From the NCBI GenBank assembly GCA_043744715.1, contig JAYTUE010000082.1:1884-65883 (forward strand): a stretch of 64,000 bases of DNA, in the 5' to 3' direction. Source of the stretch: Verrucomicrobiota bacterium (GTDB taxonomy: Bacteria > Verrucomicrobiota > Verrucomicrobiia > Limisphaerales > CANJSG01). The position numbers were made by a program, and so were the translations under genes. The notes under the pieces are model-generated. The model saw only the letters and a program-made list of their open reading frames with translations. It was not told the origin of the DNA and searched no databases. Shown piece after piece: positions 28,251 to 59,727 of this stretch (positions are counted from its first letter, which is position 1; each line of letters begins with the position of its first letter).

Positions 28251-28324
28251 GCGGGTGTAGCTCAATGGTAGAGCGCTAGTCTTCCAAACTAGTTACGAGG
28301 GTTCGATTCCCTTCACCCGCTCCA
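28251..28324 (+). tRNA. tRNA-Gly (anticodon UCC), with encoded CCA
   Basis: Hand-folded cloverleaf: acceptor GCGGGTG/CACCCGC, D arm GCTC-AATGGTA-GAGC, anticodon arm CTAGT-CTTCCAA-ACTAG (UCC at positions 34-36), T arm GAGGG-TTCGATT-CCCTT, then discriminator T plus CCA. Confidence 0.9.
28295..28324 (+). repeat. attL core (3-prime 30 nt of tRNA-Gly)
   Basis: ACGAGGGTTCGATTCCCTTCACCCGCTCCA, identical to 59698..59727. Confidence 0.9.
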
Positions 28325-28383: not shown

Positions 28384-28407
28384 AAAACGGGAATAAAAAC
28401 GGGAATA
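28384..28407 (+). repeat. Tandem 12-mer AAAACGGGAATA x2 (candidate recombinase arm-type site)
   Basis: Two perfect tandem copies lie 60-83 bp inside attL. A related AAAAGCGGGAATG lies 74-86 bp inside attR. Confidence 0.5.
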
Positions 28408-33233: not shown

Positions 33234-33258
33234 AGAAATTTCGGGAACACGAAGAGGT

Positions 33259-40123: not shown

Positions 40124-40144
40124 AGCGTCTCCTGCCCCCGCAAC

Positions 40145-40897
40145 TTACTTTGTTTCGCCCCCCCGTTCTTTCAGACCGAGGAGCTTTGTCTCCAGCTGTC
40201 CGACCGTGCGGCTTGTTTCGACGAGCTGTTGGAATATCTTCTCACGATCCTTTTCCATCCGATCAATTTGCAGGTCTTTTACCCGGTTGGTGATTTCAAG
40301 ATCGCGCACCTCCCTTTTCAGCTCCGCCAGTTCATTTGAATCCGCCTCTTCCCTTCGTTTTGGTTCCGCATCATGCGGAAAGGTGCGGAAGTTTTCCGAA
40401 TCCTGCGGAAGCGGTTCCGGATTGGCTTTGGCGGCCCTGGCCTTCTCCTCGGTGATGGCGGCCTCGACGGACTGGGGGGTGATGAAATAGCGGCGTTCAT
40501 TGGGATCGAAATAGGCTTCGAGCCGGGCGATGCCCTGCCGGTTGGGCTGGCACCAGTTGGTGATGCTGCGTTCCGAACGGGCGACACCGGCGGTCTCGAA
40601 GAGCCGGGCGACATCACGCACGATCAAAGTGCAGTTCTCCCGCCTGACGGAAGGAGTGCGGAATGCTTCCGAAGAGTTCGGAATGGTTCCGAAGACTTCC
40701 GCAACGTGCGGAACCTTGCCGAAGCGTTCCGAACCTTGCGGCACCGTGCGGAGTGCTTCCGCACCATTCGGAAAAGCCGCATTGTCATGCGGAAGATGAT
40801 TCGGGTCGGGTTGTAGCGGGGATGTCTCGAACATGGGGGAAGTGAAGCCGTGGAGCGGGTCGTAAGACCCCGGCATTCCTGCATCCAATTCTAGCAC
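40145..40897 (-). CDS. Hypothetical protein: decapeptide repeats + HTH-like centre + C-terminal coiled coil
   Basis: 250-aa ORF. aa ~35-80 read AEALRTVPQG SERFGKVPHV AEVFGTIPNS SEAFRT; the centre reads IVRDVARLFETAGVARSERSITNW (HTH-like); the C-terminus reads ELAELKREVRDLEITNRVKDLQIDRMEKDREK. Coding status across the repeat block is ambiguous because nearly all frames are open there. Confidence 0.55.
   Translation of the reverse strand: MLELDAGMPGSYDPLHGFTSPMFETSPLQPDPNHLPHDNAAFPNGAEALRTVPQGSERFGKVPHVAEVFGTIPNSSEAFRTPSVRRENCTLIVRDVARLFETAGVARSERSITNWCQPNRQGIARLEAYFDPNERRYFITPQSVEAAITEEKARAAKANPEPLPQDSENFRTFPHDAEPKRREEADSNELAELKREVRDLEITNRVKDLQIDRMEKDREKIFQQLVETSRTVGQLETKLLGLKERGGETK
40364..40421. 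repeat. Heptamer array A1: 5 copies in exact 10-bp phase plus 1 copy shifted by 1
   Basis: TTCCGCA, TGCGGAA, TGCGGAA, TTCCGAA and TGCGGAA start at 40364, 40374, 40384, 40394 and 40404. TTCCGGA starts at 40415. Confidence 0.85.
40657..40794. repeat. Heptamer array A2: 12 copies in exact 10-bp phase (plus one straggler)
   Basis: Starts at 40657 + 10n: TGCGGAA TTCCGAA TTCGGAA TTCCGAA TTCCGCA TGCGGAA TGCCGAA TTCCGAA TGCGGCA TGCGGAG TTCCGCA TTCGGAA. An extra TGCGGAA lies at 40788. Confidence 0.9.
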
Positions 40898-40982
40898 ACC
40901 CGCAGGGTGGAGCGGAAGGGCGTGGAGTTATGCACAGGCGGGCTTGTGGCGGAGGAACCCCGCGCCGTGCTAAACTGGTGAA

Positions 40983-41300
40983 ATGACAAACATTCCACAC
41001 ACAGACAGCGACATCCGCATTCCACACGCTCTCTGGCTCGCGTCAGGACTCTCGCTGCGGGAAAAGGCTCTATTGGCAAAGATCGCCGAAGCCGATGTGA
41101 ACGAAGGCTACCGTGTTCTCAACCGCGACATCATAGGGTTTCTTGGCGTGCGTGAACGGCACGTCCAATCCTGCGTCGCCGCGCTTCTGGACAAGGGCTA
41201 CATCACGCTACGGATCAACTCCGACATGAGCCGCGTGATCAAACCGACGGCGAAGCTGGCGAAGATTCTGACGCGACGGGTCAAGCGCAGCGGTCGCTGA
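40983..41300 (+). CDS. Small winged-helix DNA-binding protein
   Basis: 105 aa; LSLREKALLAKIAE ... FLGVRERHVQSCVAALLDKGYITL has a MarR/Rep-like wHTH pattern. Confidence 0.6.
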   Translation: MTNIPHTDSDIRIPHALWLASGLSLREKALLAKIAEADVNEGYRVLNRDIIGFLGVRERHVQSCVAALLDKGYITLRINSDMSRVIKPTAKLAKILTRRVKRSGR

Positions 41301-41348: not shown

Positions 41349-41744
41349 ATGCAATCCATCAACCAACTCATCAAGGAAAAGAACATCGAACTCGCGACCC
41401 TTGATCCGGTGGTGGCGGCAGGCTTCACGCAGGTGCCCAACTTCATCCTCCGCAATCCCGACATTTCAGCCGGAGCCAAGGTGGTGTATGCCATGTTCCT
41501 TTCCTATGCCTGGCACAACGACTCGTGTTTTCCGGGACAGGACAGGTTGGCGGAGGACATGGGGTTGACCCGTCCGCGTGTGACGCAGTTGATCTCCGAG
41601 CTGGAATCCGCTGGGTTCATCACCATCCAACGACGTGGGCAGGGGAAGACCAACCTCTACAAGGTTCATTTCCAGGTGCAGGCGAAGCCGCAGAGTTTTC
41701 CACAGCAAACATCCAGAGGTAAACTGGCTTACCTCAAGAAGTAA
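41349..41744 (+). CDS. Helix-turn-helix (HTH_36/replication-initiator-like) protein
   Basis: 131 aa; FTQVPNFILRNPDISAGAKVVYAMFLSYAWHNDSCFPGQDRLAEDMGLTRPRVTQLISELESAGFI is typical of plasmid/ICE Rep-organiser-type HTH proteins. Confidence 0.65.
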   Translation: MQSINQLIKEKNIELATLDPVVAAGFTQVPNFILRNPDISAGAKVVYAMFLSYAWHNDSCFPGQDRLAEDMGLTRPRVTQLISELESAGFITIQRRGQGKTNLYKVHFQVQAKPQSFPQQTSRGKLAYLKK

Positions 41745-42124: not shown

Positions 42125-42339
42125 TTAGTTTCGGAGCAGTTCGATCAGGTCGTCCGTGGTCAACCTGGCTTGTCGCATGATCAGCTTGAGCGTATAGGAT
42201 CAGGCAGATCCTTGCCGTGCAGCGCCACCAAGGTCGTCAGGCGCTTGATGGGATGCCAGAAGATGACATGGCTTCCGTCCTGTCTCTTCTCCACGAAACC
42301 GGCCCGTTTGAGCGCGGCCACCATCTTGGAAGGACGCAC
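42125..42339 (-). pseudogene. hicA: HicA-family mRNA interferase toxin, apparently frameshifted
   Basis: VRPSKMVAALKRAGFVEKRQDGSHVIFWHP ... LHGKDLP is HicA-like. The frame stops at 42181 (..DPIRSS-stop), while the -1 frame continues YTLKLIMRQARLTTDDLIELLRN-stop (to 42125), which is the conserved HicA C-terminus. Confidence 0.6.
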
Positions 42340-42353
42340 CGTCGGCAGGCGGG

Positions 42354-42596
42354 TCAAACGAGTATCGGCCGTCGCACCTGAACACCGACTATGACCGGTT
42401 GGCTGTGCTCTTCCGGGATCGGTTCGCCGAGTTCCTGCAATGTCTCCACCCACAGTTCGATGGCCTCCTTCGCCATGGCCACCGCGTGCTCGAAGCTCGT
42501 GCCCCAAGTCACACAGCCAGGCAAAGCCGGCACGCTCACGGCAAAACCACCCTCTTCCAGAGGGGCCAGCTCAATTGTGTAAGTCATGGTCTGCAT
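42354..42596 (-). CDS. hicB: HicB-family antitoxin (UPF0150)
   Basis: 80 aa; YTIELAPLEEGGFAVSVPALPGCVTWGTSFEHAVAMAKEAIELWVE. Its stop overlaps a possible TTG start of hicA. Confidence 0.8.
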   Translation of the reverse strand: MQTMTYTIELAPLEEGGFAVSVPALPGCVTWGTSFEHAVAMAKEAIELWVETLQELGEPIPEEHSQPVIVGVQVRRPILV

Positions 42597-42880: not shown

Positions 42881-43551
42881 CCCTCCATTCTACCATGTCC
42901 GACAGTTTTCCCGCAAACGACCGCCCTTGTCCTTTACGCCGACCCCGACATCACGGGCGACATACATGGTATGTAGGGGCTGGACGCCCTTCACTGGTTC
43001 ATTCCATGGCTCTACCGAGCCACGACTTGTTCCCCAACGTGTCGTCGGCTAGCGCCCGACTTTGCGCTTTTTCCATCCGGCTAGTCGGGTATCAGGTTTT
43101 CCTATCGGTCACCCTCACCAAAAACCGCAAAGTCGGCCGCCTCGGGACTATCGTCCCTTAGCCGTCGACACGTTGGGGGGTGCTGTCGGTGCTGGCGCAC
43201 GGCCACTAGGAGCTACCGCTCCACCTGAACATCGTGCTGGCGCGACGGTTCGCGTGGAGACGCGGAGGGACGAATCCCCGCCTGCCGGTCAATGGACAAA
43301 AGCGCCGCCGCGAATGCGGCTTGGAACAGCACGCGGCGAATGCCGCGCACCGTTGCCGCTGTGGTATGATTACCTTTCCTCCCACGACTCCCAGCAATCC
43401 TGTCTCCCTATGAGTCTACCGGCAGGTGGTGCTGAGACCAGGCGCTATTACCTCGATGGCTCGTGCCCAAAACGGTTGCCGTCGTTCCGAAATGCGGTCC
43501 ACACAACCGGAACTGCATTCGGTTTCAGGAGTGGCGGCTGGTCTGGGCACC

Positions 43552-44832
43552 ATGAACGACCCGCTTATCCACATCGGCCAATTCGACCACCGGGGGCAAC
43601 CATTGCCCTTCGGGCTTTCAGCCGTGGACGCCCGCCAACACCTCTACCTCATCGGCAAGACCGGTTCCGGGAAAACCACCCTGCTCCGCAACCTGCTGGT
43701 GCAACACATCGCCGCTGGACACGGCGTCGGGCTGATTGATCCCCACGGCGATCTCGCCGAGGAATTGTTGAATCACATCCCGCCTTCGCGGGCGGATCAT
43801 CTGGTCTACTTCAATCCGGGCGACCTGGAGTTCCCCATCGGTTTGAACCTCTTGGCCAATGTGCCGGTGGATGACCGGCACTTGGTCGCCTCCGGCATCG
43901 TAGGAGCCTTCAAGGGGATTTGGAGGGACTCATGGGGGCCTCGGCTCGAATACATCCTCTACAACGCCATAGCGGCCCTCCTGGACTGCCAGAACACCAC
44001 TTTGTTGGGCGTGAACCGGCTCCTGACGGACTCGCGCTACCGCGCTTGGGTCGTGCGCCAGATCAAAGACCCGTTCATCCGGGATTTCTGGGAGAACGAA
44101 TACGAGGGCTACGATCCACGGTTCCAACGCGAGGCCATCGCCCCCATCCAGAACAAGCTGGGCCAGTTCCTCCAGAGTCCCGTGATTAGAAACATCCTCG
44201 GGCAGGTGCGGACAAAGGTGAGCATCCCCTTCGTCATGGACACCTCCCGCATCTTCATCGCCAACCTGTCCAAAGGACGCTTGGGTCATGACAAGGCCAA
44301 CCTGCTTGGTTCCCTGCTGACGACGCAGTTCCAGTTGGCGGCCATGGCACGGGGTTCGATCCCGGAGGCGGAACGCCGTGATTTCCACCTCTTCATCGAT
44401 GAGTTCCAGAATTTCAGCACGGACGCCTTCGCCTCGATCCTCGCCGAAGCTCGCAAATACCGGCTCTGCCTCACGCTCTCCCACCAATACATCGACCAGC
44501 TTTCCCTGCCGGTGCGTCAGGCGGTCTTTGGCAACGTGGGCACGCTCGTCTCCTTCCGCGTGGGTCACACGGATGCCGAGGTGCTGCATGATGAATTCGG
44601 CCACGAATTCGCCGAGCAACAGCTCGTCGATCTCGACAAGTTCGAGATGGTGGTGAAGCTCTTGGAGAACGGAACCAACCGGACGCCTTTCCGGGCGATG
44701 AGTCTCGCGCCTTTGGAGAACCGGGTGGGACGCAGGGACAAGTTAATCAAGCTGTCACGGGAGCGGTTCGCGACGCCGAGGAAAGAGGTGGAGGGGAGGT
44801 TGGAGAGATGGATGGATTCTGATTGCGGCTAA
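43552..44832 (+). CDS. TraD/VirD4-like (T4SS-DNA_transf/DUF87) P-loop ATPase without TM domain
   Basis: Walker A GKTGSGKT, Walker B FHLFIDEFQNF and a TraG-D_C-like LTLSHQYIDQLSLPVRQAVFGNVGTLVSFRV. The start is placed at MNDPLIH (43552). It is a paralogue of the core of 55374..58445. Confidence 0.8.
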   Translation: MNDPLIHIGQFDHRGQPLPFGLSAVDARQHLYLIGKTGSGKTTLLRNLLVQHIAAGHGVGLIDPHGDLAEELLNHIPPSRADHLVYFNPGDLEFPIGLNLLANVPVDDRHLVASGIVGAFKGIWRDSWGPRLEYILYNAIAALLDCQNTTLLGVNRLLTDSRYRAWVVRQIKDPFIRDFWENEYEGYDPRFQREAIAPIQNKLGQFLQSPVIRNILGQVRTKVSIPFVMDTSRIFIANLSKGRLGHDKANLLGSLLTTQFQLAAMARGSIPEAERRDFHLFIDEFQNFSTDAFASILAEARKYRLCLTLSHQYIDQLSLPVRQAVFGNVGTLVSFRVGHTDAEVLHDEFGHEFAEQQLVDLDKFEMVVKLLENGTNRTPFRAMSLAPLENRVGRRDKLIKLSRERFATPRKEVEGRLERWMDSDCG

Positions 44833-47156
44833 ATCTGAACTCGGAGTTCGGCTGCGGTGCGTAGGCGGACGGGTTGGAGCGCTCCGAACTTACGGATCAC
44901 CGCGTCGTATAAGTCTCCTGGAAACTTCGGCGCGGAAATTGTGATGATGGCTGCGTATTCGAGTCGATTGGTTGCGCCGTGGCGAGGAATGGCGTGCAGC
45001 ACGAGAAACGGCTCGTGCAGCGACGTGGCCCACTTCGATTTCGAGCGGCGCACTATGGCCTCCCACTTGTATTGCACCCGGCGTTCGCCCTCGGACGGAT
45101 ATTGATTGCCCGACTCCGAGACAGAGAGCACCGATTTTTTCCAGCCGTCTGCCAAGAGCGCTTTGACTTCTGCTGCGTCACCTAGGGTGTGAAGTCTTTT
45201 CGCTTTCACGCCTACCGCCTCGCGCTTGGGCGTGAAGGTGAATACCTGACTGTTCGGGTAGAACGTGTCTTCGATGCACATTGCGGTGTAGTCCGAAGGA
45301 TGATTCGGAGCTATGGGAGGCAGCGCGGCCACTGTCCATTTCACGCTCACTTTGCCACTCGTCACCAAATTTGGTGGCAACATGATCGGGAGCTTCACCA
45401 TCTTCTTCGCTGCGATGTCGCCTTGGAAAACGATTGTGACCGTTTTCTCATCGCAGCGTAGCAGCCCATCGAGATTCGCCGGGACGATGCCGTGTCCAAG
45501 AAAGTTGTCCGGTTCATCATCCGGGTGCGCGGCGGCGTGAATGAGCAGCGCGCGGGCGAGCAAAGCTGTTCCGCGTTCAAAGCTCTCCACCGCCTGCCCA
45601 CCGAGCGCCGCTACAATCGGCGATGCGAAGCTGGTGCCGGCGCTCAAAACTTTGATTCCCGGCGCTACAGCAACGAGGTGAATGGGCCGCTGGTCGCAGC
45701 CGCCGAAGGCCGCCACATCCGGTTTGAGCTTTGCACATTCACGACCAGGTCCTTGGCATGAATAGGGGGCGTGAATCTTCCCATTCTTTCGCTCAGTGTA
45801 AGCGCCTACGCCAAGCCCGTTCACCAAATCTGCGGGTGCTTGAATCCGGTTCATCCCCGCTCCCGCCGCACCGTCATTACCCACCGCCACACAAAACACA
45901 ACTTTGTGAGCTACAGCGAGCAGATCGAGCGCAAAAGTGAAGCGCGAAATCATGTCGTCGAGAAGCGGTCCGCGCGGACCAAAGCTCACATTGAAGACTT
46001 TGATGTCCTTGCGTGCCGGCACTGCCGCTTCAATGACGTCGATGGATTCGTAAAGATCAATGTCGGCTGAATTGGAAGTCGGCAGCGCCCGGATGCTTAC
46101 AACGGAAATCGCAGGTGCGGGCAACGGTGTCTTCGTATCGTGATCATTCAGTGGCCCGTATAGCATGGCTCCGGCAACAGCCGTGCCGTGAGCGATCCCT
46201 TCGGCTACAGCCGTCGTCTTGATTGAGAGACCCTCGTCCTGCTCAGCGTGTCCACGTAGCAACGGGTGACTCGGATCGATGCCGCCGTCGAACATCCCGA
46301 CTTTTATTGTCGACCGTGTCGTTGCGGTCGGCGGCGGCGGCGCGGGGAAGGTGGGCGCACTCCGCAGATTCTCAAAACCGCCGAAGACCAGCGGATGTGC
46401 TGTGCGGAGCGGGTTCGCACCCGCCAGGGCTTGGAGGGCGTTTCGGTTGAGATGACACGATACGAAAAGCGGTCCGCTCTCGTAGTAAGCAACGGTTGGT
46501 CTCCTCATCGTCACGCCTTGTTCGTGGAAGAGTTCCTTGAGGAAGTGCGCTTGCTCACCCTCCGAGTGACGCGAAGGATGCAACACAACTTCCACGCGTC
46601 CCTCTGTCCAACCTGGCTCAAAGCCGAGGAGTTGTTCGTGTGCTCCGAGAAGGTCGAACTTTTCGATGCGCTGAATCTCCTCACGAAATGGCCTTGGCAA
46701 TGTGCCCTCGGACTGGTCGAGCGCATTCAGTAGCCTGCGAAAGCCCGCATCGTTGCTGCGCACAAAGACCATACGACCGGTGACTTCATGGATATGTTGT
46801 TCGAGATGCTTTTTCATTCGCTTGGTCTGCGCGACCTCGGCGGTCGGAAGGCGAAAGTTGCGTGACCCGACGTTTTCCAAATCTCGCACGAGGCCAAAGA
46901 TGCCGTGTGGATCATAGGACTTCGCAATCATGTCCGGATGCAAGCGGAGGCAGAGCACCGCTTCGTCTTTGAAACGTTTGCGTGGAGGCAACTCTGCATA
47001 TTGCGCAAGGGCGGTGCTGATTTCGCGCTTCACTAGGTCGCGAGCCTCGCCATAGCTGCGCGGCATTTCAGTCGAGCCAAAACCGGAGCGCTTTTCGACC
47101 GGAGCCACGTATCGCTCACCATTGGCGAGGATGAGTCTGCGTTGCGGATCAGGCAT
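44829..47156 (-). CDS. ietS: Subtilisin-like S8 serine peptidase, IetS-like
   Basis: 775 aa with catalytic triad motifs VGMFDGGID, AHGTAVAG and GTSFASPIV. It overlaps the upstream AAA ATPase gene by 8 nt. Confidence 0.75.
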   Translation of the reverse strand: MPDPQRRLILANGERYVAPVEKRSGFGSTEMPRSYGEARDLVKREISTALAQYAELPPRKRFKDEAVLCLRLHPDMIAKSYDPHGIFGLVRDLENVGSRNFRLPTAEVAQTKRMKKHLEQHIHEVTGRMVFVRSNDAGFRRLLNALDQSEGTLPRPFREEIQRIEKFDLLGAHEQLLGFEPGWTEGRVEVVLHPSRHSEGEQAHFLKELFHEQGVTMRRPTVAYYESGPLFVSCHLNRNALQALAGANPLRTAHPLVFGGFENLRSAPTFPAPPPPTATTRSTIKVGMFDGGIDPSHPLLRGHAEQDEGLSIKTTAVAEGIAHGTAVAGAMLYGPLNDHDTKTPLPAPAISVVSIRALPTSNSADIDLYESIDVIEAAVPARKDIKVFNVSFGPRGPLLDDMISRFTFALDLLAVAHKVVFCVAVGNDGAAGAGMNRIQAPADLVNGLGVGAYTERKNGKIHAPYSCQGPGRECAKLKPDVAAFGGCDQRPIHLVAVAPGIKVLSAGTSFASPIVAALGGQAVESFERGTALLARALLIHAAAHPDDEPDNFLGHGIVPANLDGLLRCDEKTVTIVFQGDIAAKKMVKLPIMLPPNLVTSGKVSVKWTVAALPPIAPNHPSDYTAMCIEDTFYPNSQVFTFTPKREAVGVKAKRLHTLGDAAEVKALLADGWKKSVLSVSESGNQYPSEGERRVQYKWEAIVRRSKSKWATSLHEPFLVLHAIPRHGATNRLEYAAIITISAPKFPGDLYDAVIRKFGALQPVRLRTAAELRVQI

Positions 47157-48312
47157 GTTGAACCTCCTTGTTCTTCAGGCTTTTTCGCCCTGGGGCGTTC
47201 TTGGTCAGATGATACTGCACGGTGGATGAGCTTTTCCCGAAAAACTCGGCGATTTCGCGCACACTCATGCCGGTCATTTCTTTAAGTGTCTTGGTCATCG
47301 GTCCCAACTCGTCCTTCGGAATACCAGGCATCCGATGCGTAGTGGCCTCAATGAACGCGAAACCGAGCGGCACTTGTTCGACGACATGCCGGCGAACTAC
47401 GCCTTGCGCCATCGTATCGAGTTCCGAACCATTGCTGCCTGCAAGAATCCGCGCGATAGCGGCAAGAAAACCAGCCGGCAGTGCGCTAGCAAAGCGCCCA
47501 CAAGCACGCACAAGAATCGCCTCTCGTTGCAGCTCGCCGGGAAGCGGCGTTTGCAGCACCACATCAAAACGACGGTTGATGGCTGGATCGAGCAACTCCG
47601 GGTGATTCGTCGCGGCAATGAGGACAGAGTGTAAAGGCCATTCCTCCAACTCCTTTAAGAGGACGTTCACAATACGTTTGAGTTCACCAACTTCCGTCGC
47701 GTCGTCCCGACGTTTGGCGATGGCATCGAACTCATCGAGCAACAACACGCAGGGCGTCGCACGCGCGTAGTCGAGACTGCGTCGCAGATTTGAGCCCGTT
47801 TTGCCGAGAAAGCTGGAGATGGACGTGGCGAGATCAAGCACGACCAACGGCAGATCAAGTTTCAATGCAAGCCACCGGGCAAGCATGGTCTTGCCAGTTC
47901 CAGGCTGCCCTTTGAGCAACAGCGTGCGGGGCGGAGCGAACCCTTCTCGCAGCAGGCGCTCGACTTCCAAACGCTCGCGCAGGAAACGCGCGACGATTGC
48001 GTGAACCGCCGGCTCCAGGATCGGTTCAGGCGCATTGTCCGCCGGTAGCACGCGAAGCAAGGCCAGGCCCGCGTCCGCATCGGTTGGGGGCGGTTCAGCG
48101 GAGTGCCAGCGAATCGCAGCACTGTTGGCGGCAAACTTTGAGAGGAGATCGCCCAGATCTTCGGCGACTTGTGGGTATTCCTTTTTAAGCGAGCGAATCG
48201 CAGTGAGAGAGAGCAGTTCCAACCGCTGTCGGTTGCCAGACAGGCCAGCCTCGACAAGCTGAGGCAGGAGCGCACTTAGAGATTTTGTGCTAGAAATGTG
48301 CTCTTGTTTCAT
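47149..48312 (-). CDS. ietA: AAA+ ATPase with C-terminal HTH, IetA-like
   Basis: 387 aa with Walker A GQPGTGKT, Walker B VLLLDEFD and sensor ATNHPELLDPAINRRF, plus a C-terminal MSVREIAEFFGKSSSTVQYHL. It is paired with the S8 protease as in the IetAS defence system (Gao et al. 2020). Confidence 0.75.
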   Translation of the reverse strand: MKQEHISSTKSLSALLPQLVEAGLSGNRQRLELLSLTAIRSLKKEYPQVAEDLGDLLSKFAANSAAIRWHSAEPPPTDADAGLALLRVLPADNAPEPILEPAVHAIVARFLRERLEVERLLREGFAPPRTLLLKGQPGTGKTMLARWLALKLDLPLVVLDLATSISSFLGKTGSNLRRSLDYARATPCVLLLDEFDAIAKRRDDATEVGELKRIVNVLLKELEEWPLHSVLIAATNHPELLDPAINRRFDVVLQTPLPGELQREAILVRACGRFASALPAGFLAAIARILAGSNGSELDTMAQGVVRRHVVEQVPLGFAFIEATTHRMPGIPKDELGPMTKTLKEMTGMSVREIAEFFGKSSSTVQYHLTKNAPGRKSLKNKEVQHA

Positions 48313-52294: not shown

Positions 52295-54310
52295 ATGTTA
52301 GAAACGAAGACTACACTGGTGGCAGACATACTGCATGGAGTCATCGCGTTGTCTCCGCTGGAGAAGCGACTTGTTGCCACTCGGGCATTCAATCGTCTCC
52401 ACAACGTTCTCCAGAACTCGACCGTATATTTCACTTACCCGTCAAACCGTACCTCGCGCCTGAGCCATTCGCTTGGTGTTGCGAAGATCGCTGGAGAATT
52501 ATTCCGGCAGGGGTTGCTCAATGCCACAGTGGACGATCGCCGAGCATTTCTGAAGATGGCACACACCAGTATCGGAGAATTCCAGAGTGAAACCGCTTTT
52601 AGGGAAGATACAGCGCGTCACACTTCAGGTCACACACATATAGGAGATTTGCTAAGGTCAAAGACTATTGCCATCCCATGCGATTTCTATTCATCGATGC
52701 TCCTTGCCGGACTCGAGCCTGACGAAATTCGCACCTACCTCGTTTTGTTGCAATCTGTCCGTTATGTGGCCCTTCTTCATGATCTTGGACATCCACCATT
52801 CTCACATGTGACAGAAGCGGCCCTGCAAAGCGGTTTCGAGCGATTACAAGGCGACGACGTTATTCCAACTTCTCGCCGCGGAATTCTTAAACAAGAATTG
52901 ACTGAATTTCTTTCTGGACCAGATGATGCCGCGTTTCATGAGCTGCTCGGCCTTGAACTCACAAAAACATTGTTAGACACAGTTTTGGCGGACTTGAAGA
53001 AGGAAAGTCTTACCGACTATCAACTTTTTGATGTTCTCGTAATAAAACACGCAACGTTAAAGATTTTACAGAACAAGCCGTTTTTTTGTATCCTTCACCA
53101 AATCGTTGACTCGGATCTTGATGCCGATCGTTTGGACTACGTTCAACGGGATCTGATCAGTTCGGGAATGTCGCGCGAACCGTTCCGTCCCGACCGATTG
53201 ATTCAATCCTTTACATTGATTGCAGATGCTGCGGAGCAGGCGTATCCATTTCTTTTTCTCCCTTCAATACGAGCTCTCAATAATTTGGAGGACTTTTTTC
53301 ATCAGAGATTTCAACTTTATAAGTATGTGATCTTTCATCATAGAGTGGTCAAATTTGATGGATTGCTTCAGCGATGTATTGAAGAAATTAGTGATCAAGC
53401 GCTCATTGAAACCCCGCTTGTTGAGGCTGCCAGTGGCGTTGAATCTGCTCCCAATGAAAATCCTCTCCTTCTGCCAACCGGCATTGCGGGCATCTGGAGT
53501 CTTTTTAGCCGGGCTGTTTCCACAAACCCGCTACAAAGAGAAAGTTTTTATGTTCAATGGGATGACGCTTGGCTTTTAGGAGCACTCCGCAATAAGTATT
53601 TCACAATGAAGCGGTTCCGGAGTCTGCAAAATCCGCCCGTTACGGAAAAAACCGTATTAGAGGTTCGCCTTGAAGAAATGCTGTCAAATCAGAAGCATCA
53701 TCGAGCGCTATTTAAGCGTGGGGAATGTTTTTATGCTGTTGACGATGCATTTTGGAGAGCGATTCCAGACAACACCTCATTTACGTCGTTTGGGAAATCG
53801 TGGGAGCCAAATCCAACTGGGCATTTTGCATTTGAGAAAGGTGGGAAAAAAATTCAAGATTATGTCTCCCAACTTAGGAGCGCCTCAGGCGATGGTGAAG
53901 CTCTGACGGAACTTGTGGAGCAATATGGGTATGTGCTGTCTTTGATTTGCGCCTTAGTCCATCGTATTGCCGGGCGAAAAGTTCCATTGAGTTTTCTATT
54001 TAAGGCAGCCCTGGAGTTCAAAGAAATTCACTTTAGAGACAACATTTTGGATGTAATTGTTATTCCTAAAACAATTAAAGCAGGGGTTCAACGCAACTTT
54101 AGGTTGGCCGCTAATAATATGGAGATTGTGCCGATCGGCCGCGTGTCGCCGATCGCGGGGGAATTGGAGCGGGCATCATTGTTGTTTCCTCCTTTTTTTG
54201 TATACATGCTTTCCGCAAATGAACCTTCGGATGGGGAACGCCTGAAATGGCGCGCTGAATTTGGCCAACTGCTTTGGAAGCACTTCCAGACGTGGGCTCT
54301 TATCGATTAG
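52295..54310 (+). CDS. SAMHD1/dGTPase-like HD-domain phosphohydrolase with a ~340-aa C-terminal extension
   Basis: 671 aa with DILHGVIALSP ... FNRLHNVLQ ... RLSHSLGV, LLHDLGHPPFSH and DADRLDYVQRD, which are the dNTP triphosphohydrolase HD signatures. It sits in a markedly AT-richer cassette. Confidence 0.8.
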   Translation: MLETKTTLVADILHGVIALSPLEKRLVATRAFNRLHNVLQNSTVYFTYPSNRTSRLSHSLGVAKIAGELFRQGLLNATVDDRRAFLKMAHTSIGEFQSETAFREDTARHTSGHTHIGDLLRSKTIAIPCDFYSSMLLAGLEPDEIRTYLVLLQSVRYVALLHDLGHPPFSHVTEAALQSGFERLQGDDVIPTSRRGILKQELTEFLSGPDDAAFHELLGLELTKTLLDTVLADLKKESLTDYQLFDVLVIKHATLKILQNKPFFCILHQIVDSDLDADRLDYVQRDLISSGMSREPFRPDRLIQSFTLIADAAEQAYPFLFLPSIRALNNLEDFFHQRFQLYKYVIFHHRVVKFDGLLQRCIEEISDQALIETPLVEAASGVESAPNENPLLLPTGIAGIWSLFSRAVSTNPLQRESFYVQWDDAWLLGALRNKYFTMKRFRSLQNPPVTEKTVLEVRLEEMLSNQKHHRALFKRGECFYAVDDAFWRAIPDNTSFTSFGKSWEPNPTGHFAFEKGGKKIQDYVSQLRSASGDGEALTELVEQYGYVLSLICALVHRIAGRKVPLSFLFKAALEFKEIHFRDNILDVIVIPKTIKAGVQRNFRLAANNMEIVPIGRVSPIAGELERASLLFPPFFVYMLSANEPSDGERLKWRAEFGQLLWKHFQTWALID

Positions 54311-54676: not shown

Positions 54677-55396
54677 ATGTTCAACTTCTTCAAAAAGAAG
54701 ACGGAGGTATTAAATCACTGGATCGCATTTGCTGATGGGTTCCAGACTTCCCCGTTGGAGTTCTACGCGGCTTTGGAAAAGGAACTGGCAGACCGGCAGG
54801 TCCCGAGCATGGAGATGAAGCGCATCGAGCTGCCCGAAGGCGGGCTGCTTTCCGAGAAGCGCGTCTACCTGCGGATGCTGCGGGAAAGACTGGTGTTCGA
54901 CGTGTGCGCCGCTCCGTTTGGGAGCGGCTTTTTCTTTTCCTGCCGCACTTCGGAAATCCCCGTTGTCCTCAACCTTCTGGAGCTGGCCCTGGTGTTCATG
55001 GCGGGCGCGTTGTCCTTTGTGGCGTTCACCTACTTCCTTGGCTTCATCCTGGGAACCTTGAGCTTGTTGGCGCTGCTCGTCGCCGCCGTCTACGTGCTCC
55101 GCAACGCCGTGGCCATGGGATTGCAGGATCTGGACAAGACCCTTCAGCAATCGCCCTTCGTGGGCACCGTCTACGAAGCCTGGTTCCGCAAGGAGACCTA
55201 CCACCGCATCGATTCGCGGCTGTGCTATCTGGAGGTGGTTCCCTCATTGGTGAAGAAGCTGGCCGAAGACACGGCCGCCACCAAGGGCATCAAACTCGTG
55301 CGCCAGTTCCAACTGGCTCCCGTCTTGGGCGAACTCTACCAGCCGGCGGCACCAACCTTGAACCCTGTCCCCTATGCCCCACCGGTCGGTGCATGA
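54677..55396 (+). CDS. Hypothetical membrane protein (2 TM helices)
   Basis: 239 aa with central helices VVLNLLELALVFMAGALSFVAFTYFLGFILGTLSLLALLVAAVYVL. Its 3-prime end overlaps the next ORF by 23 nt. Confidence 0.65.
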   Translation: MFNFFKKKTEVLNHWIAFADGFQTSPLEFYAALEKELADRQVPSMEMKRIELPEGGLLSEKRVYLRMLRERLVFDVCAAPFGSGFFFSCRTSEIPVVLNLLELALVFMAGALSFVAFTYFLGFILGTLSLLALLVAAVYVLRNAVAMGLQDLDKTLQQSPFVGTVYEAWFRKETYHRIDSRLCYLEVVPSLVKKLAEDTAATKGIKLVRQFQLAPVLGELYQPAAPTLNPVPYAPPVGA

Positions 55397-58300
55397 GCAG
55401 GTGTCCGAGCAGTTCGCGGAGCTTGAGCGTCGTGGACGTGGGTGGCAGGTGTTTCCCGAGCCGGTCACGCCAGAACCGCCCTTTGTCCCCTTCACCGGCT
55501 ACACCCTGGCTTCCGTGCTGGACGACGGACGCGTGCCGACCGTGGGCAGTTCCCTGCTTTCCGGCGTCCTCCGTTGGCTGAACAAGGAACCCCAGGTTCC
55601 ATCGAATGAGGACGAAGCCGAGGAACCAGTCCCGACTCCGCTCGTGCGGGAGGATCTGGTCGAACTTCAACTCTCGCTGCCCGATAGCCTGAAGGTGTCT
55701 CCCGAGGTGTTCGCCGGCTTCCTTTCCCAACTCACACTCTGCACCGAGCCCGTGAGCTTCGAGCTGTTCGGCACCACTGAAAAGGTTGTCGCCCAGTTTT
55801 CCGCCAGCCATTCGGACGCACCCGGTGTGCGTCGGCAGCTCTCCGCCCATTTCCCCGAGGTGGTGTTCCTGCCGACGAAGGACACACTTTTTCCACTGGC
55901 TGAACCTGACGCCCACCATGCGGTGGTCGAGTTCGGTCTGGAGAAGGAGTTCCTGCTGCCTTTGGCCTCCGGAGGACTTGATCCCTTTGTGGCTCTGGTG
56001 GCTGCCATGGGCGAACTGCGCGAGGGCGACTGCGCCCTCTACCAGGTGCTCTTTCAGCCCTGCCGCCATCCTTGGCGGGAAAACATCCTCCGCTCCGTGA
56101 CCGACGGCGAAGGCGGAGCCCTCTTCGTCAATCGTCCCGATCTCGTGATGCTGGCCAAAGGCAAGGTGTCCCAGCCGCTCCATGCCGTGGTGGTGCGGAT
56201 CACCTCGAAAAGCGGCAGCTTCGAGGAAGCTTGGGAGATTCTGCGGGGGTTGGCGAGAGCCTTGCGGGTGTTCTCGAACCCGGAGGGCAACGAACTCGTT
56301 CCGCTGGCCAATGACGACTATCCGGCCGAGGCCCATTTGGAAGATGTGCTCCGTCGCCAGACCCGACGCAGCGGGATGCTGCTCAATGCCGATGAACTGG
56401 CCGGCTTCGTCCATCTGCCTTCGCCCGCAGTCCGCACGGCCAGGTTTCAGCGGCAGTCCAAAACCAGCAAAGCCCCTCCAAAATCTCTCTCCCCTGTGGG
56501 GGTTCTATTGGGAACCAATCTCCACGCGGGCAAAACCACTCCCGTCCGTCTCTCCGCCGAACAACGGACGCGCCACATGCACGTCATCGGGGCTTCGGGC
56601 ACGGGCAAGAGCACCTTCCTCTTCAACCTGATCCAGCAGGACATCCTCGCCGGTGAAGGGCTCGCCGTCCTGGACCCGCACGGCGACCTGATCGACCGGA
56701 TCTTGGAAGTCATTCCCGAGCACCGGATCAAGGACGTCATCCTTGTCGATCCCTCCGACGAAACCGCCTCCATCGGGTTCAACATCCTGTCGGCGCACAG
56801 CGACTTGGAGAAGACGCTGCTCGCCTCCGATCTCGTGTCCGTCTTCGCGCGGCTTTCCACCAGCTGGGGCGACCAGATGGAGGGCGTGTTCCGCAACGCC
56901 ATCCTCGCGTTCCTGGAAAGCAGCCAGGGCGGCACGCTCTCCGATCTCCGCCGCTTCCTGCTCGATCCCAAATACCGCGAGCGGTTCCTCGCCACCGTGC
57001 AGGACCCGGACATCCAGTTCTACTGGCGGAAGGGGTTCGCCCAGCTCACGGGCAACAAGTCCATCGGCCCCGTGCTGACGCGCCTGGAAATCTTCCTCGC
57101 CCCCAAACCGATCCGCTACATGGTGGCGCAGCCGGTCAACCGGCTGGACTTCACGGGCATCCTCGACTCCGGAAAGATCCTCCTCGCCAAACTGTCGCAA
57201 GGAGCCATCGGCAAGGAAAACTCCCATCTGCTGGGTTCCCTCTTCATGGCCAAGCTGCAACAGGCGGTCATGGCCCGGCAGCGGCAGGAGGCGGCCGTCC
57301 GCCAGGACTTCTGGCTCTACTGCGACGAGTTCCACAACTTCATCACCCCGAGCATGGCCGAAATCCTGAGCGGGGCGCGCAAGTATCGGCTGGGACTCGT
57401 CCTCGCCCACCAGGAGCTGCGGCAGTTGGAACGCGACCGCGAGGTGGCCAGCGCCGTCCTCTCCAATCCCTATACCCGCGTGGTCTTCCGCGTGGGCGAC
57501 GATGATGCACGGAAGCTGGAGAACGGGTTCTCCTCGTTCGAGGCCCACGATCTCCAGAACCTCGCCACGGGCGAAGCCGTGGTGCGGATCGAACGGAGCG
57601 ACGGTGATTTCAACCTGCGGGTTTCCCAGCCGGAAAAGGTCGATCCTGCTTTGGCAGCAGCACGGTTGAAGGAAGTGACGGAAGCCTCCCGTCGCACCTA
57701 CGCCACGCCACGGGCGGAGATCGAGGCCGCGTTACGGCAGCAGTTCCCACCAGAAGAACCCCCGCAGTCTGCGGAAGCACGGAAGGATGCGGAAGAGTTC
57801 CGTGCCGTGCCGAAGGCTTCCGAACGCATCGGAAAAGTTCCGAAGATGGCGGAAAGCAGCGGCATCGTTCCGCAGGTTGCCGAAGCGCCGAAGACGTCTG
57901 AACCCGGCGCTGACTCAAAAGCAGCGCTTGAGACCGAACATAGCGCCATCAAGCGACAGATCACGCGGCACGCCGAAGCGTTGGGCTACCATGTCGCGGT
58001 CGAAGAATTTGTGGCGGACACCCTCGGGCGGGCCGATCTGGTTCTTCGTCGCGGGAAACGGGTCGTCGCCGTCGAGGTGTCCGTGACGACCAATGCCGGG
58101 AATGAAATCGGCAACCTCGTCAAATGCCTGTCGGGCGACTTCTCGCAGGTTGTCCTCGTGGCGACCAGCGCCCGGAAGCTCGCCAACATCGAGCGGCGGT
58201 TCCGCAGCACCGCCCCGGCGGAAGGCGCTGCGGAAGTAGTTTTTTGCCTGCCCGCAGACCTCCTTGAACAGCTTCGGACATGGGCGGCGGGCGACCCGCG

Positions 58301-58445
58301 CGATTTGGCGACCGAAAAGGCATTTCCACGCAAACAGCCGATCAATCTGGTGGCACCACGGATGACCGACGCCGAGCGGACCGAGCGCGAAGGGGCGATG
58401 CTGGCGCGTTTACGGGAGGCGATGAAAACGCCGCCGCCGACATAG
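55374..58445 (+). CDS. Large TraD/DUF87-like P-loop ATPase fused to a decapeptide-repeat linker and a PD-(D/E)xK-like C-terminal domain
   Basis: 1023 aa. aa 1-400 have no recognised family. Walker A GASGTGKST (56589..56615), Walker B FWLYCDEFHNF and a TraG-D_C-like LVLAHQELRQLERDREVASAVLSNPYTRVVFRV. Repeats AEEFRAVPKA SERIGKVPKM AESSGIVPQV AEAP. Then LGYHVAVEEFVADTLGRADLVLRRGKRVVAVEVSVT (nuclease-like D ... E-x-S/K core; tentative). Confidence 0.8.
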   Translation: MPHRSVHEQVSEQFAELERRGRGWQVFPEPVTPEPPFVPFTGYTLASVLDDGRVPTVGSSLLSGVLRWLNKEPQVPSNEDEAEEPVPTPLVREDLVELQLSLPDSLKVSPEVFAGFLSQLTLCTEPVSFELFGTTEKVVAQFSASHSDAPGVRRQLSAHFPEVVFLPTKDTLFPLAEPDAHHAVVEFGLEKEFLLPLASGGLDPFVALVAAMGELREGDCALYQVLFQPCRHPWRENILRSVTDGEGGALFVNRPDLVMLAKGKVSQPLHAVVVRITSKSGSFEEAWEILRGLARALRVFSNPEGNELVPLANDDYPAEAHLEDVLRRQTRRSGMLLNADELAGFVHLPSPAVRTARFQRQSKTSKAPPKSLSPVGVLLGTNLHAGKTTPVRLSAEQRTRHMHVIGASGTGKSTFLFNLIQQDILAGEGLAVLDPHGDLIDRILEVIPEHRIKDVILVDPSDETASIGFNILSAHSDLEKTLLASDLVSVFARLSTSWGDQMEGVFRNAILAFLESSQGGTLSDLRRFLLDPKYRERFLATVQDPDIQFYWRKGFAQLTGNKSIGPVLTRLEIFLAPKPIRYMVAQPVNRLDFTGILDSGKILLAKLSQGAIGKENSHLLGSLFMAKLQQAVMARQRQEAAVRQDFWLYCDEFHNFITPSMAEILSGARKYRLGLVLAHQELRQLERDREVASAVLSNPYTRVVFRVGDDDARKLENGFSSFEAHDLQNLATGEAVVRIERSDGDFNLRVSQPEKVDPALAAARLKEVTEASRRTYATPRAEIEAALRQQFPPEEPPQSAEARKDAEEFRAVPKASERIGKVPKMAESSGIVPQVAEAPKTSEPGADSKAALETEHSAIKRQITRHAEALGYHVAVEEFVADTLGRADLVLRRGKRVVAVEVSVTTNAGNEIGNLVKCLSGDFSQVVLVATSARKLANIERRFRSTAPAEGAAEVVFCLPADLLEQLRTWAAGDPRDLATEKAFPRKQPINLVAPRMTDAERTEREGAMLARLREAMKTPPPT
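57770..57895. repeat. Heptamer array B: 10 copies in exact 10-bp phase plus out-of-phase flanking copies
   Basis: Starts at 57788 + 10n: TGCGGAA TTCCGTG TGCCGAA TTCCGAA ATCGGAA TTCCGAA GGCGGAA AGCGGCA TTCCGCA TGCCGAA. Extra copies lie at 57770 (TGCGGAA) and ~57888 (CCGAA). Confidence 0.9.
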
Positions 58446-58466: not shown

Positions 58467-59600
58467 CTATTTCGCGCCGAACAGCGGCATCGTGGTGACG
58501 GCACTCCGCAGGGTGGACACTTCCAGATGGGTGTATCGCTTGTTCATCTCCTTGGAGGAATGCCCCGTCAGTTTCATCCTCAGTTCGTCCGAAACTCCGG
58601 CGTTGGCGAGGATCGAGTTGAAGCTGTGGCGGAGCGAGTGGAACGTCCGTTGGGTGAACTTGCGCGTGCCCTTTCCTTCGATCACACCCGGATCGATGCC
58701 GGCCCCCACCACGATCCGTTTGAAGCTCTCCGAGAGCCCGTGTTTTCCACCCGGCCCCTTTGTCGCCAGCTTGGGGCAAAGGAATCCGGCGGTGCCAAAA
58801 GTCTTCAGGTAGTCCAGATGTTCAAGGATGTGGAAATGCATCGGGATGATGACTTTTTTACCCGTCTTTTTCTGGAGATAGACGATGACCCCTTCCGCCG
58901 GAAGGACGTTCTCCCATTGCATCTGGACGCAGTCGCCCAACCTCGCGCCGAGGAAATAGCCCAGCAGGATCAGGGTTTGCCATTCCAACGACGGCGCGGC
59001 CCCGATGAGCTTCTGGACCTCTTCCTGCGTAAAGATGCCGCGTTCCGAGCTTTCATCCTTCGGCAGCTGCACCGCGACCACCGGGTTCTTGAGGATGATG
59101 CCGTAAAGCTCGGCCCGCCGAAACGCGCTCTTCAGCGTCTTCACGTCGACGATGGCGGTCTTCGGCGCGGCTCCGGAGTTCAGCCGCCAGTTAAGGAATC
59201 CTTCCACTTCGGCGGGTGTCACCGACGTCATGGGTTTCTTCTCCCGTGGCCCCAAGTGGGCCAGGAAGAGGCGGACCGAATTCCCGTAACGCACATGCGT
59301 CCCGGTTGCGCGTCTGGCCTTCACCCCATCCAGCCAGCCGTTCAGATAGTCGGCGACCGAGGGAACCGCCAGACTGTCGCCGTTCACTTTCTCCGAGACG
59401 TCGTTGAGCACCTTCCGCAGCTGCGCGGTCGTCAAGGAACCGGCGCGGGCCTGCTGCTCCACCCGCTCCAGTTCCACCGCCACCCGCATCGCTTGATTCC
59501 GGTCGGTGGTCTTGGCCGATCGTTTCAACTGGCGTCCGTTGCGGTCGGTGAAGCACGCGATCCAGTAGCGGGATTCGTCCCGGCGAATGACGGTTGCCAT
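58467..59600 (-). CDS. Tyrosine-type site-specific integrase
   Basis: 377 aa with an N-terminal SAM-like/arm-binding region and a catalytic region with LGARLGD, HSLRHSF and GHSSKEMNKRYTH (R..HxxR..Y). Its 5-prime end lies 98 bp from attR. Confidence 0.9.
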   Translation of the reverse strand: MATVIRRDESRYWIACFTDRNGRQLKRSAKTTDRNQAMRVAVELERVEQQARAGSLTTAQLRKVLNDVSEKVNGDSLAVPSVADYLNGWLDGVKARRATGTHVRYGNSVRLFLAHLGPREKKPMTSVTPAEVEGFLNWRLNSGAAPKTAIVDVKTLKSAFRRAELYGIILKNPVVAVQLPKDESSERGIFTQEEVQKLIGAAPSLEWQTLILLGYFLGARLGDCVQMQWENVLPAEGVIVYLQKKTGKKVIIPMHFHILEHLDYLKTFGTAGFLCPKLATKGPGGKHGLSESFKRIVVGAGIDPGVIEGKGTRKFTQRTFHSLRHSFNSILANAGVSDELRMKLTGHSSKEMNKRYTHLEVSTLRSAVTTMPLFGAK

Positions 59601-59611
59601 GGACTGAGAAT

Positions 59612-59624
59612 AAAAGCGGGAATG
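59612..59624 (+). repeat. AAAAGCGGGAATG motif related to the attL-proximal 12-mers
   Basis: A single copy between the integrase start and attR, in the same orientation as 28384..28407. Confidence 0.4.
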
Positions 59625-59697
59625 AAAAGCTCAAGACATGGCCTCAAAACGATGCGCTACATGTTGACCATCAATGCTTGGAAAAAGGTGCATCGAG

Positions 59698-59727
59698 ACG
59701 AGGGTTCGATTCCCTTCACCCGCTCCA
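59698..59727 (+). repeat. attR core (displaced copy of the tRNA-Gly 3-prime end)
   Basis: Identical 30-mer to 28295..28324. The upstream sequence does not continue the tRNA. Confidence 0.9.

Follow-up and report, generated by a model that had tools for sequence, protein, structure and literature searches.

Short sites repeated head to tail at about one helical turn, on which protein dimers bind cooperatively to form a filament or superhelix, are known from the plasmid centromeres of the ParR-parC type (R1/pSK41), from the omega heptads of pSM19035 and from the met-boxes bound by MetJ. The small winged-helix or helix-turn-helix proteins P2 Cox and 186 Apl occupy rows of sites about one turn apart at two separate loci per element, and RacA of Bacillus subtilis, a MerR-like winged helix joined to a coiled coil, binds GC-rich inverted repeats (dispersed 14-bp palindromes) and anchors the chromosome. 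The window analyzed here is a stretch of 64,000 nucleotides from a Verrucomicrobiota bacterium (GenBank assembly GCA_043744715.1, contig JAYTUE010000082.1, positions 1,884 to 65,883 of the forward strand); all coordinates given below refer to this window. It holds two arrays of a palindromic heptamer repeated every 10 base pairs (bp), designated A and B, both of which lie within coding sequence and in one 31.4-kb element (approximately 28295-59727) that is integrated in a tRNA-Gly gene. The best explanation for array B, to which we assign a probability of roughly 0.6, is that it is a lineage-specific second copy of a nucleotide cis element, presumably a platform of double-stranded DNA (dsDNA). 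The cis element is characteristic of a family of tRNA-integrating elements in Verrucomicrobiota and is placed inside coding DNA.

In the arrays, as in plasmid centromeres and met-boxes, short sites follow each other in tandem at intervals of about one helical turn (exactly 10 bp in 59 arrays). The centromeres, however, are intergenic and lie by a ribbon-helix-helix gene and the gene of a partition nucleoside triphosphatase (NTPase), whereas the arrays are within coding sequence; no Pfam or NCBIfam match to a ribbon-helix-helix adaptor or a ParA/ParM-type NTPase was obtained among the open reading frames (ORFs) of the island that were scanned (small ORFs not exhaustively). As with P2 Cox and 186 Apl, rows of sites phased by the helical turn occur at two loci of one element, but those of the phages are direct repeats at the promoter switch and attP, whereas those described here are palindromic, coding and located 1.8 kb and 12 kb from the attachment (att) sites. 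RacA is the best structural match of the protein encoded by the array A gene, for which a winged helix followed by a long helix is likewise predicted; the match is weak (E 0.25), sequence similarity is absent, and the RacA sites are dispersed and do not form phased arrays in its own gene.

The origin of phage lambda comprises four dyad-symmetric iterons inside gene O, each of which is bound by a dimer of the O protein, whose domains are flexibly linked (PMC6022878). Here, too, repeated dyad-symmetric sites lie in the coding region of a protein with a flexible linker, and a gene for an O-like winged-helix protein adjoins. In lambda, however, the four iterons measure 18 bp, lie about two turns apart and are accompanied by an AT-rich region, whereas 7-15 heptamers at 10 bp without an AT-rich region are found here; moreover, the three-frame reading that gives a peptide repeat has no counterpart in lambda. 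The clt sites of Streptomyces are short direct or inverted repeats to which the Tra translocase binds and which can continue within the tra gene (PMC3583192). The present case resembles them in having a short-repeat cis site able to overlap a translocase gene, in a tRNA-integrated element with FtsK/TraD-like ATPases, but clt consists of 7-9-bp direct repeats read by the C-terminal winged helix of TraB, whereas the heptamers are palindromes and the C-terminus of the ATPase has a nuclease fold. None of these parallels (lambda origin, plasmid centromeres, Cox/Apl and clt) matches site size, symmetry, period and coding overlap together.

Array B and the three-frame reading of the heptamer

Array B (57788-57884; no strand is assigned to this or to the other heptamer features) consists of ten heptamers with an exact 10-bp period, the consensus TKCSGMA and the core TTCSGAA. 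A reading made from the sequence only (hereafter the sequence-only reading) had reported ten heptamers starting at 57788 + 10n with out-of-phase copies at both ends; its letters are correct, and phase and flanking copies were confirmed. Six of the ten units fit the consensus exactly (57788, 57808, 57818, 57838, 57868 and 57878), three deviate by one base (57828, 57848 and 57858) and one by two (TTCCGTG at 57798), with 65 of the 70 heptamer positions in agreement. Out of phase are an exact heptamer upstream (TGCGGAA, 57770-57776) and, 8 bp past the last unit, a near-heptamer with one mismatch (CGCCGAA, 57886-57892), which encodes AEAPK and aligns with an AEVPK motif in other homologues.

The host gene of array B (55374-58445, plus strand) encodes a protein of 1023 amino acids (aa) with an N-terminal DUF8128-type domain, a TrwB/TraD/HerA-like P-loop ATPase (Pfam matches to TrwB/TraD-type ATPases at aa 385-714), a disordered linker and a C-terminal PD-(D/E)xK nuclease fold. 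The last of these was recognized by Foldseek through its similarity to EcoT38I (E 1.2e-4) and also to R.BspD6I, the R2 endonuclease domain, Bax1 and Hjc. AlphaFold2 predicts disorder at aa ~795-845; array B, which is read on the plus strand as ...DAEEFRAVPKASERIGKVPKMAESSGIVPQVAEAP..., corresponds to aa ~805-838, where the predicted local distance difference test score (pLDDT) is below 50. The position between a TraD-like ATPase and a PD-(D/E)xK-like domain that the sequence-only reading had given for the array is thus borne out by Pfam, by the predicted disorder and by Foldseek.

The periodicity and synonymous-site tests that had been proposed for array A were applied to array B as well. In 300 first-order Markov simulations of the window, the best number of in-phase exact heptamers per 100 bp was one in 212 runs, two in 87 and three in a single run, and a chance origin of the in-phase heptamers is excluded. 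When the array was resampled synonymously with the peptide held fixed, with codons drawn according to the usage of the gene itself, none of 20,000 trials attained the 6/10 exact heptamers observed (P < 5e-5); the 8/11 exact heptamers of the corresponding array at a related locus, L001, were likewise never reached in 20,000 trials. A DNA-level constraint on array B itself is supported by this resampling. A window-wide enrichment of TTCSGAA (24 copies seen, 14.3 expected) was also considered and set aside, 7 of the 24 copies being inside arrays.

The consensus T-K-C-S-G-M-A, i.e., T[T/G]C[C/G]G[A/C]A, reads the same on both strands, and 10 equals 1 modulo 3, so that neighboring heptamers change frame. 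Read as xxT KCS GMA, a unit encodes [S/A][E/A]; read as TKC SGM Axx, it encodes F[R/G] and then a residue with A in the first codon position; and read as xTK CSG MAx, it encodes [V/I/L/M][P/R][K/N/H/Q]. Three units make up one decapeptide, and the heptamers encode no stop codon. Because the heptamer is palindromic and the period is 1 modulo 3, the same decapeptide, circularly permuted, results in any frame and from either strand. This accounts for the occurrence of one decapeptide in two unrelated proteins in opposite orientations, the ORF across array A reading ...GSERFGKVPHVAEVFGTIP...; it also accounts for the several overlapping ORFs across array A and for a member of the array A protein family (P0184) that still shows '…FRRVRNASARFRTVRK…' in a shifted frame. 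The presence of one signal in both orientations relative to the coding strand had been taken to point to a constraint on the DNA, a view that is strongly supported, the explanation being the palindrome and its 10-bp period. It is a conserved DNA signal that brings about, as a side effect, the decapeptide common to the two proteins.

The 63-aa N-terminal repeat region of the array A protein was used for an exhaustive phmmer search of 1.84 billion representatives, which yielded 28 hits: members of the family, unrelated decapeptide repeats from eukaryotes and ORFs spuriously called on simple satellites (two satellites checked). The search for other proteins with this repeat, which the sequence-only reading had suggested, therefore revealed no further related families among the 28 hits, but it did show that satellite ORFs built from TTCCGAA-N3 give the same decapeptide. 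The two satellites have a 10-bp unit, (GAACGGTTCC)x29 in L154 (10196-10487) and (AACCGTTCCG)x42 in L155 (10124-10542); they lie on gene-poor contigs with a G+C content (GC) of ~48% and are called as ORFs with SERFRTVPNG and SEPFRTVPNR repeats. They are unrelated to the element and arrive at the same peptide by the same arithmetic; since their ORFs encode it, the translation of TTCCGAA-N3 into this decapeptide is shown independently.

Selection on the nucleic acid in the primary arrays

Array A (40657-40773), the family-wide primary copy, has 12 in-phase units, 11 of which are exact, and an extra out-of-phase heptamer at 40788-40794. Its host gene (40145-40897, minus strand) is an ORF of 250 aa that is called as 229 aa from the ATG at 40834. 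The same gene contains a short second array of five exact in-phase heptamers (40364-40410), which corresponds to the disordered stretch of the protein that separates winged helix and coiled coil. For the 229-aa form, AlphaFold2 predicts disorder at aa 1-60, a confident winged helix at aa 66-137, modeled as H-H-beta-hairpin-H, disorder at aa 141-161 and a C-terminal helix of 65 residues; the arrays correspond to the two disordered segments (pLDDT < 50). The top PDB match of the core in Foldseek is the RacA-DNA complex 5i44_B (E 0.25, probability 0.80), with MerR- and MarR-type regulators next in rank. A profile search with this protein against PDB sequences yielded nothing relevant, its family has no match in Pfam, NCBIfam or PHROG, and homologues were not found in plasmid and phage collections. 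The family comprises more than 1000 homologues with a nearly invariant winged-helix core, and at least two repeats are present in 116 of the best 120. A genome scan for the family yielded 68 loci, nearly all of them labelled as Verrucomicrobiota metagenome-assembled genomes, with 59 distinct arrays of 7-15 in-phase units each, a period of exactly 10 bp and 88% exact units.

Over these 59 arrays (604 units) the heptamer profile is equal at every codon start, with T1 at 95-98%, C3 at 95-100%, G5 at 96-99% and A7 at 94-99%, and with variable spacer positions 8-10. For a codon test in 57 distinct genes the repeats were defined by the peptide alone ([A/S]E.F[G/R]; F[G/R].[V/I/L/M]P) in order to avoid circularity, and the folded parts of the same genes served as background (given in brackets). 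Within the repeats Glu is encoded by GAA in 100/102 cases (65%), Phe by TTC in 101/102 (53%), Pro by CCG in 128/129 (47%), Val by GTT or GTG in 91/91 (63%), Ile by ATT in 17/17 (33%), Leu by CTT in 16/17 (10%), Arg by CGC or CGA in 53/54 and never by CGG (44%), Gly by GGC or GGA in 48/48 (66%), and Ser by TCC or TCG in 56/60 and never by AGY (33%; AGY 46%). The third base of the codon preceding [A/S]E is T in 101/102 cases (15%), and the first base after F[G/R] is A in 100/102 (27%). The common amino-acid variants P/R, G/R, E/A and N/K/H/Q are exact translations of the K, S and M degeneracies. Because the synonymous sites are locked and the amino-acid variants mirror these degeneracies, it is the nucleic acid that is under selection, with the peptide largely a by-product.

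The arrays are very probably a DNA-level cis element. They lie inside ORFs, in segments encoding disordered linkers, and nucleotide selection beyond the need of the protein is evident from the 57 genes, from the frame-independent profile and from the resampling of array B. The constraint on the DNA that the sequence-only reading had postulated is thus strongly supported for this class of arrays by synonymous sites and frame-independent profile, and for array B by the resampling. The repeat is widespread and its nucleotide pattern is conserved, unlike that of a widespread disordered linker motif without conservation at the nucleotide level. The arrays also differ from phase-variable simple repeats in that their units vary at positions 2, 4, 6 and 8-10, TRF matches amount to 68-88%, and all ORFs are intact. 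The set of permitted heptamers is closed under reverse complement, and doubly deviant units (TGCSGCA) are depleted (18 seen, p = 4e-13), as if at least one perfect TTC/GAA half were required per unit.

That the decapeptide is itself functional, as a short linear docking motif through which the two proteins are brought to one partner, had been put forward in the sequence-only reading and is extremely improbable. The repeat does lie in disordered segments, the usual site of linear motifs, it is conserved in 116 of the 120 family members, and a residual amino-acid preference among the permitted DNA variants is present (Pro over Arg 83:14; Phe over Cys). A peptide motif, however, would conserve amino acids and leave synonymous sites free, whereas in the primary arrays the synonymous sites are as conserved as the non-synonymous ones. 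The main variants are radical exchanges (P/R, G/R, E/A) that each amount to one C/G or A/C toggle of the palindrome; F[G/R] is followed by T, K, N, S, I, M or R, which have nothing but the A-start codon in common; and the codon before [A/S]E varies in its amino acid but ends in T in 101/102 cases.

A signal acting in single-stranded form, in which neighboring heptamers would pair as hairpins, either in the mRNA for translational control or in single-stranded DNA that is transferred, is very unlikely as well. Since TTCCGAA is complementary to TTCGGAA, stems of 7 bp with 3-nt loops could be formed by adjacent units, and the center bases of neighboring units differ somewhat more often than expected. 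The last effect, however, is explained by a frame-specific amino-acid preference (Pro in one frame), a covariation of position 2 with position 6 of the next unit is absent (p = 0.25 and 0.08), and a set closed under reverse complement fits recognition of the duplex. The covariance models of Rfam 15 matched nothing at either array up to E 1; their only match was the tRNA-like attR repeat, which also shows a weak match to a tmRNA model.

A literature search for the heptamer motif found nothing relevant, and the cis element, its host gene family and the three-frame dual coding are undescribed as far as the searches show. They represent an unusually clean natural case of overlapping codes, in which a DNA signal dictates a conserved 'protein repeat' in more than 1000 homologues, with third-codon positions ~98% fixed. 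As a warning, tandem peptide repeats in disordered regions can reflect a signal in the nucleic acid; a simple diagnostic is that each amino-acid variant corresponds to a toggle of one base in a palindrome.

Array B as a lineage-specific second copy

Among the best 120 homologues of the ATPase-nuclease, the decapeptide array is present in two, i.e., in the window and in P0002 (locus L001), which is 70% identical. These are orthologous arrays, eight units of which can be aligned in register. Both genes carry ~60 bp (six units, two decapeptides) more than four homologues that are 64-69% identical; these four have 4-5 exact heptamers at the same place, spaced by 10, 17, 18(, 16) bp in three of them and by 10, 27, 8 bp in the fourth. 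In 46 linkers of the family the density of heptamers is 8.9 per kb (~7.8 without the window and L001), as compared to 1.6 per kb in the rest of the gene; for the linkers of 55 further relatives the enrichment is ~8 vs. 1.6 per kb. Codon usage in 57 distinct genes (window and L001 excluded) agrees with this, as heptamer-compatible codons are used for [V/I/L/M]P[K/N/Q/H] in 36/56 cases in the linkers vs. 24/69 elsewhere (p = 0.001) and for [A/S]E in 45/176 vs. 47/644 (p = 4e-10). Given the family-wide enrichment and codon signal, a weak heptamer cluster has long existed in the linker, and one lineage has elaborated it into the regular 10-bp array. Array B would have arisen by the addition of ~60 bp (six units) to the older, irregular cluster.

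The possibility that array A of the window was recently copied into the ATPase gene was considered and set aside. The identity of array B to primary arrays is 58-61/80, within the range obtained when unrelated primary arrays are compared with each other in register (median 55/80, 95th percentile 63), and array B is no closer to array A of the window than unrelated arrays are to each other. The recent duplication of the two loci, named in the sequence-only reading as counting against its proposal, is accordingly not supported.

The exact 10-bp spacing would place successive dyad sites on roughly one face of the double helix. We infer that the arrays are dsDNA platforms for cooperative binding by a dimeric or orientation-indifferent protein of the element, since one-turn phasing, base-specific conservation and free spacers are what a cooperative protein filament on one duplex face would require. 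Among the proteins of the element, the invariant winged-helix/coiled-coil protein would be the likeliest binder; the primary array is always found in its gene. This protein is favored because it is as invariant as the motif, always bears an array and has a RacA-like architecture, but its identification as the binder is tentative. An indirect hint in its favor may be seen in the fact that the motif is invariant like the core of this protein and does not track the variable O-like neighbor. Covariation of motif and binder was tried as a guide and abandoned, as the heptamer is invariant across the family, with no specificity switch, and the type of the O-like protein is not tracked. The winged-helix protein might coat the array for autoregulation, and its coiled coil might bridge array A to array B for segregation, replication control or hand-over to the translocase-like ATPases. 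The two arrays may also be paired cis sites, an option of the sequence-only reading. The peptide is tolerated as a by-product and makes up disordered linkers.

Several points weigh against this reading. For two helix-turn-helix domains a palindrome of 7 bp is small, and a ribbon-helix-helix dimer would fit it better, although such a protein was not found among the island ORFs scanned; the match of the winged-helix core to RacA/MerR-type proteins is weak, as detailed above; and the winged-helix gene was not found near 84 ATPase-nuclease loci (L070-L153, with flanks of up to 10 kb). As for array B itself, it occurs in only 2/120 best homologues, 60% of its units are exact vs. 88% in primary arrays (4/10 imperfect vs. 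12%), and 16 of 19 codons (84%) are identical between window and L001, which is neither clearly nor significantly above the 66% of the gene, at a moderate divergence of the two (80% nucleotide identity up to the array). Owing to this rarity, the imperfect units and the codon conservation not clearly above background, the pattern of array B could be inherited, not maintained.

Array B would then be a passenger, a 60-bp expansion or insertion in a tolerant linker whose inherited pattern has not yet decayed. We consider this unlikely, though it deserves serious attention. The 4-5 heptamers at the same linker position in four further homologues argue against it, as do the heptamer enrichment and the codon-level signal in the linkers of the family. 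In addition, the array core is the best-conserved part of a fast-evolving linker, with an aa identity between window and L001 of 70%, compared to 52% before and 38% after it. According to our own count, made by eye from the alignment, 4/8 heptamer differences between window and L001 are permitted T/G or A/C toggles vs. ~14% expected; this excess is no more than suggestive. Overall, a function of array B of its own is plausible but less secure than that of array A.

The protein sequences of window and L001 are 81% identical up to the array and 30% identical after it, and the C-terminal 283 aa of the window are 57% identical to P0003 vs. 40% to P0002. Because of this drop in identity and the greater closeness of the C-terminus to P0003, the C-terminal nuclease domain (57890-58445) is concluded to have been exchanged at or just after array B. 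A role of the array as a recombination substrate, one of the options mentioned in the sequence-only reading, fits a domain swap that starts right after array B, but this is circumstantial; linkers are common shuffling points. Two start types of the nuclease domain, 'ETEH' and 'GRGGxQH', occur in the ATPase-nuclease family.

Neighboring genes and the integrated element

The element is delimited by identical 30-bp direct repeats, attL (28295-28324, plus strand), which is the 3' end of tRNA-Gly(TCC) (tRNA at 28251-28324), and attR (59698-59727, plus strand); its extent is deduced from these repeats. A tyrosine integrase is encoded at 58467-59600 on the minus strand. Divergent from the array A gene lies a gene for a 105-aa protein with weak similarity to replication-initiator winged helices (40983-41300, plus strand), followed by a gene for a 131-aa HTH_36/phage O-like replication-initiator winged helix (41349-41744, plus strand; phrog_270 E 2.6e-17, HTH_36 E 1.3e-11). 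A second TrwB/TraD-like ATPase of 468 aa without a nuclease domain (43426-44832, plus strand) belongs to the conserved module by the array A gene. This module recurs in related loci and consists of the winged-helix gene, the divergent O-like gene, often HicAB, the 468-aa TraD-like ATPase and further conserved genes; some loci also have a 239-aa gene together with the ATPase-nuclease. One of two types of O-like gene is found 40-280 bp upstream and divergent of the array-bearing gene in 45 of the 59 loci with enough sequence. The two types are very different and mostly mutually exclusive, and the heptamer profile is identical in both groups.

Alternatively, the arrays might be replication-origin iterons, or operators, for the small phage O-like winged-helix protein that is encoded divergently beside the array A gene. 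The matches of the 131-aa protein to replication-initiator families (HTH_36, phrog_270), the regular position of the O-like gene in 45/59 loci and the parallel of dyad-symmetric iterons inside lambda gene O (PMC6022878) speak for such a role. Nevertheless it is distinctly improbable. The heptamer profile does not change with two very different O-like types; an AT-rich unwinding region is absent, the lowest GC in 40 bp being 37.5% near array A (40100-41300) and 50% near array B (57400-58300); and a 7-bp site on a 10-bp period is unlike typical iterons of 17-22 bp.

The arrays have also been considered as loading sites for the TraD/FtsK-like ATPases, comparable to the clt/TRS repeats of Streptomyces TraB. 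The element encodes two TrwB/TraD/HerA-like ATPases, with no other transfer functions among the island ORFs scanned (not all of them), array B is inside an ATPase gene itself, and the clt repeats recognized by the Tra translocase can overlap the tra gene (PMC3583192). The C-terminus of the ATPase-nuclease, however, is a PD-(D/E)xK fold and not a DNA-reading winged helix, the primary array is always in the winged-helix gene and never in an ATPase gene, and a palindrome would give a translocase no direction. Loading sites are a most unlikely explanation. Clusters of at least four heptamers in ~1.9 Mb of related loci were confined to the winged-helix gene, the ATPase-nuclease linker and two cases in an ATPase core. 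The heptamers in the 468-aa TraD-like ATPase (L012, 6733-6786; L020, 7407-7460; L033, 6523-6601; L034, 2283-2361) were judged to be due to chance because they are 3-4 copies with an irregular spacing of 20-27 bp that encode residues of the conserved core (…LSEP…VFGN…AFRI…DAEV…).

Going beyond a second platform in the ATPase-nuclease gene, the heptamer array might be a portable, frame-independent dual code, insertable in any frame and on either strand as a harmless disordered decapeptide without a stop, on which the winged-helix protein polymerizes and bridges platforms. This is a rather doubtful proposition. If true, a compact element could keep long binding platforms without intergenic cost and seed new ones, as in the ATPase-nuclease linker, and bridging would couple the winged-helix locus to the translocase-nuclease locus during excision, segregation or transfer. 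The analysis in any case defines a conserved module (winged-helix gene, O-like gene, TraD-like ATPases and integrase) of integrative elements that are common in uncultured Verrucomicrobiota, and the 7-bp motif with three candidate binders (winged-helix protein, O-like neighbor and ATPases) provides a handle on the regulation, maintenance and movement of these elements.

The start of the ATPase-nuclease gene is overlapped by its partner gene (239 aa; 54677-55396, plus strand), which is conserved in 70/84 related loci. In L071 (863-3695) and L073 (728-3752) a PEGA-domain protein (~576-634 aa) and a protein of ~370 aa precede the ATPase-nuclease in place of this partner. Downstream of the ATPase-nuclease, relatives have a tyrosine integrase (L070, L073) or a serine recombinase (L001). 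At the ends of the element of the window, AAAACGGGAATA occurs twice in tandem (28384-28407, ~60 bp inside attL), and the similar AAAAGCGGGAATGAAAAG at ~59609-59630, ~70-90 bp inside attR and by the integrase gene; these may be arm-type sites of the integrase.

An S8 peptidase and an AAA ATPase are encoded as a pair (44829-48312) between the TraD-like ATPase and the next conserved gene, with matches below the cut-offs to the anti-phage models IteS and IteA (E 6e-44 and 3e-65). As the pair is absent from related loci, it looks like an insertion of defense cargo. A 671-aa HD-domain protein (52295-54310) with weak dGTPase-like matches is encoded in a patch of low GC (46% vs. ~60%); related loci lack a counterpart, and the gene probably represents further cargo. 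A HicA/HicB-like toxin-antitoxin pair, recognized by eye from the translations, is located at 42181-42596 and occurs at the same position in L003, L004 and L031. The element further encodes a 250-aa HEAT-repeat protein (39371-40123) and a 2075-aa RHS-repeat protein, named from its YD-repeat-rich sequence (33127-39354); the lowest GC of the window, 15% in 40 bp, is found at 39315, at the end of the RHS gene.

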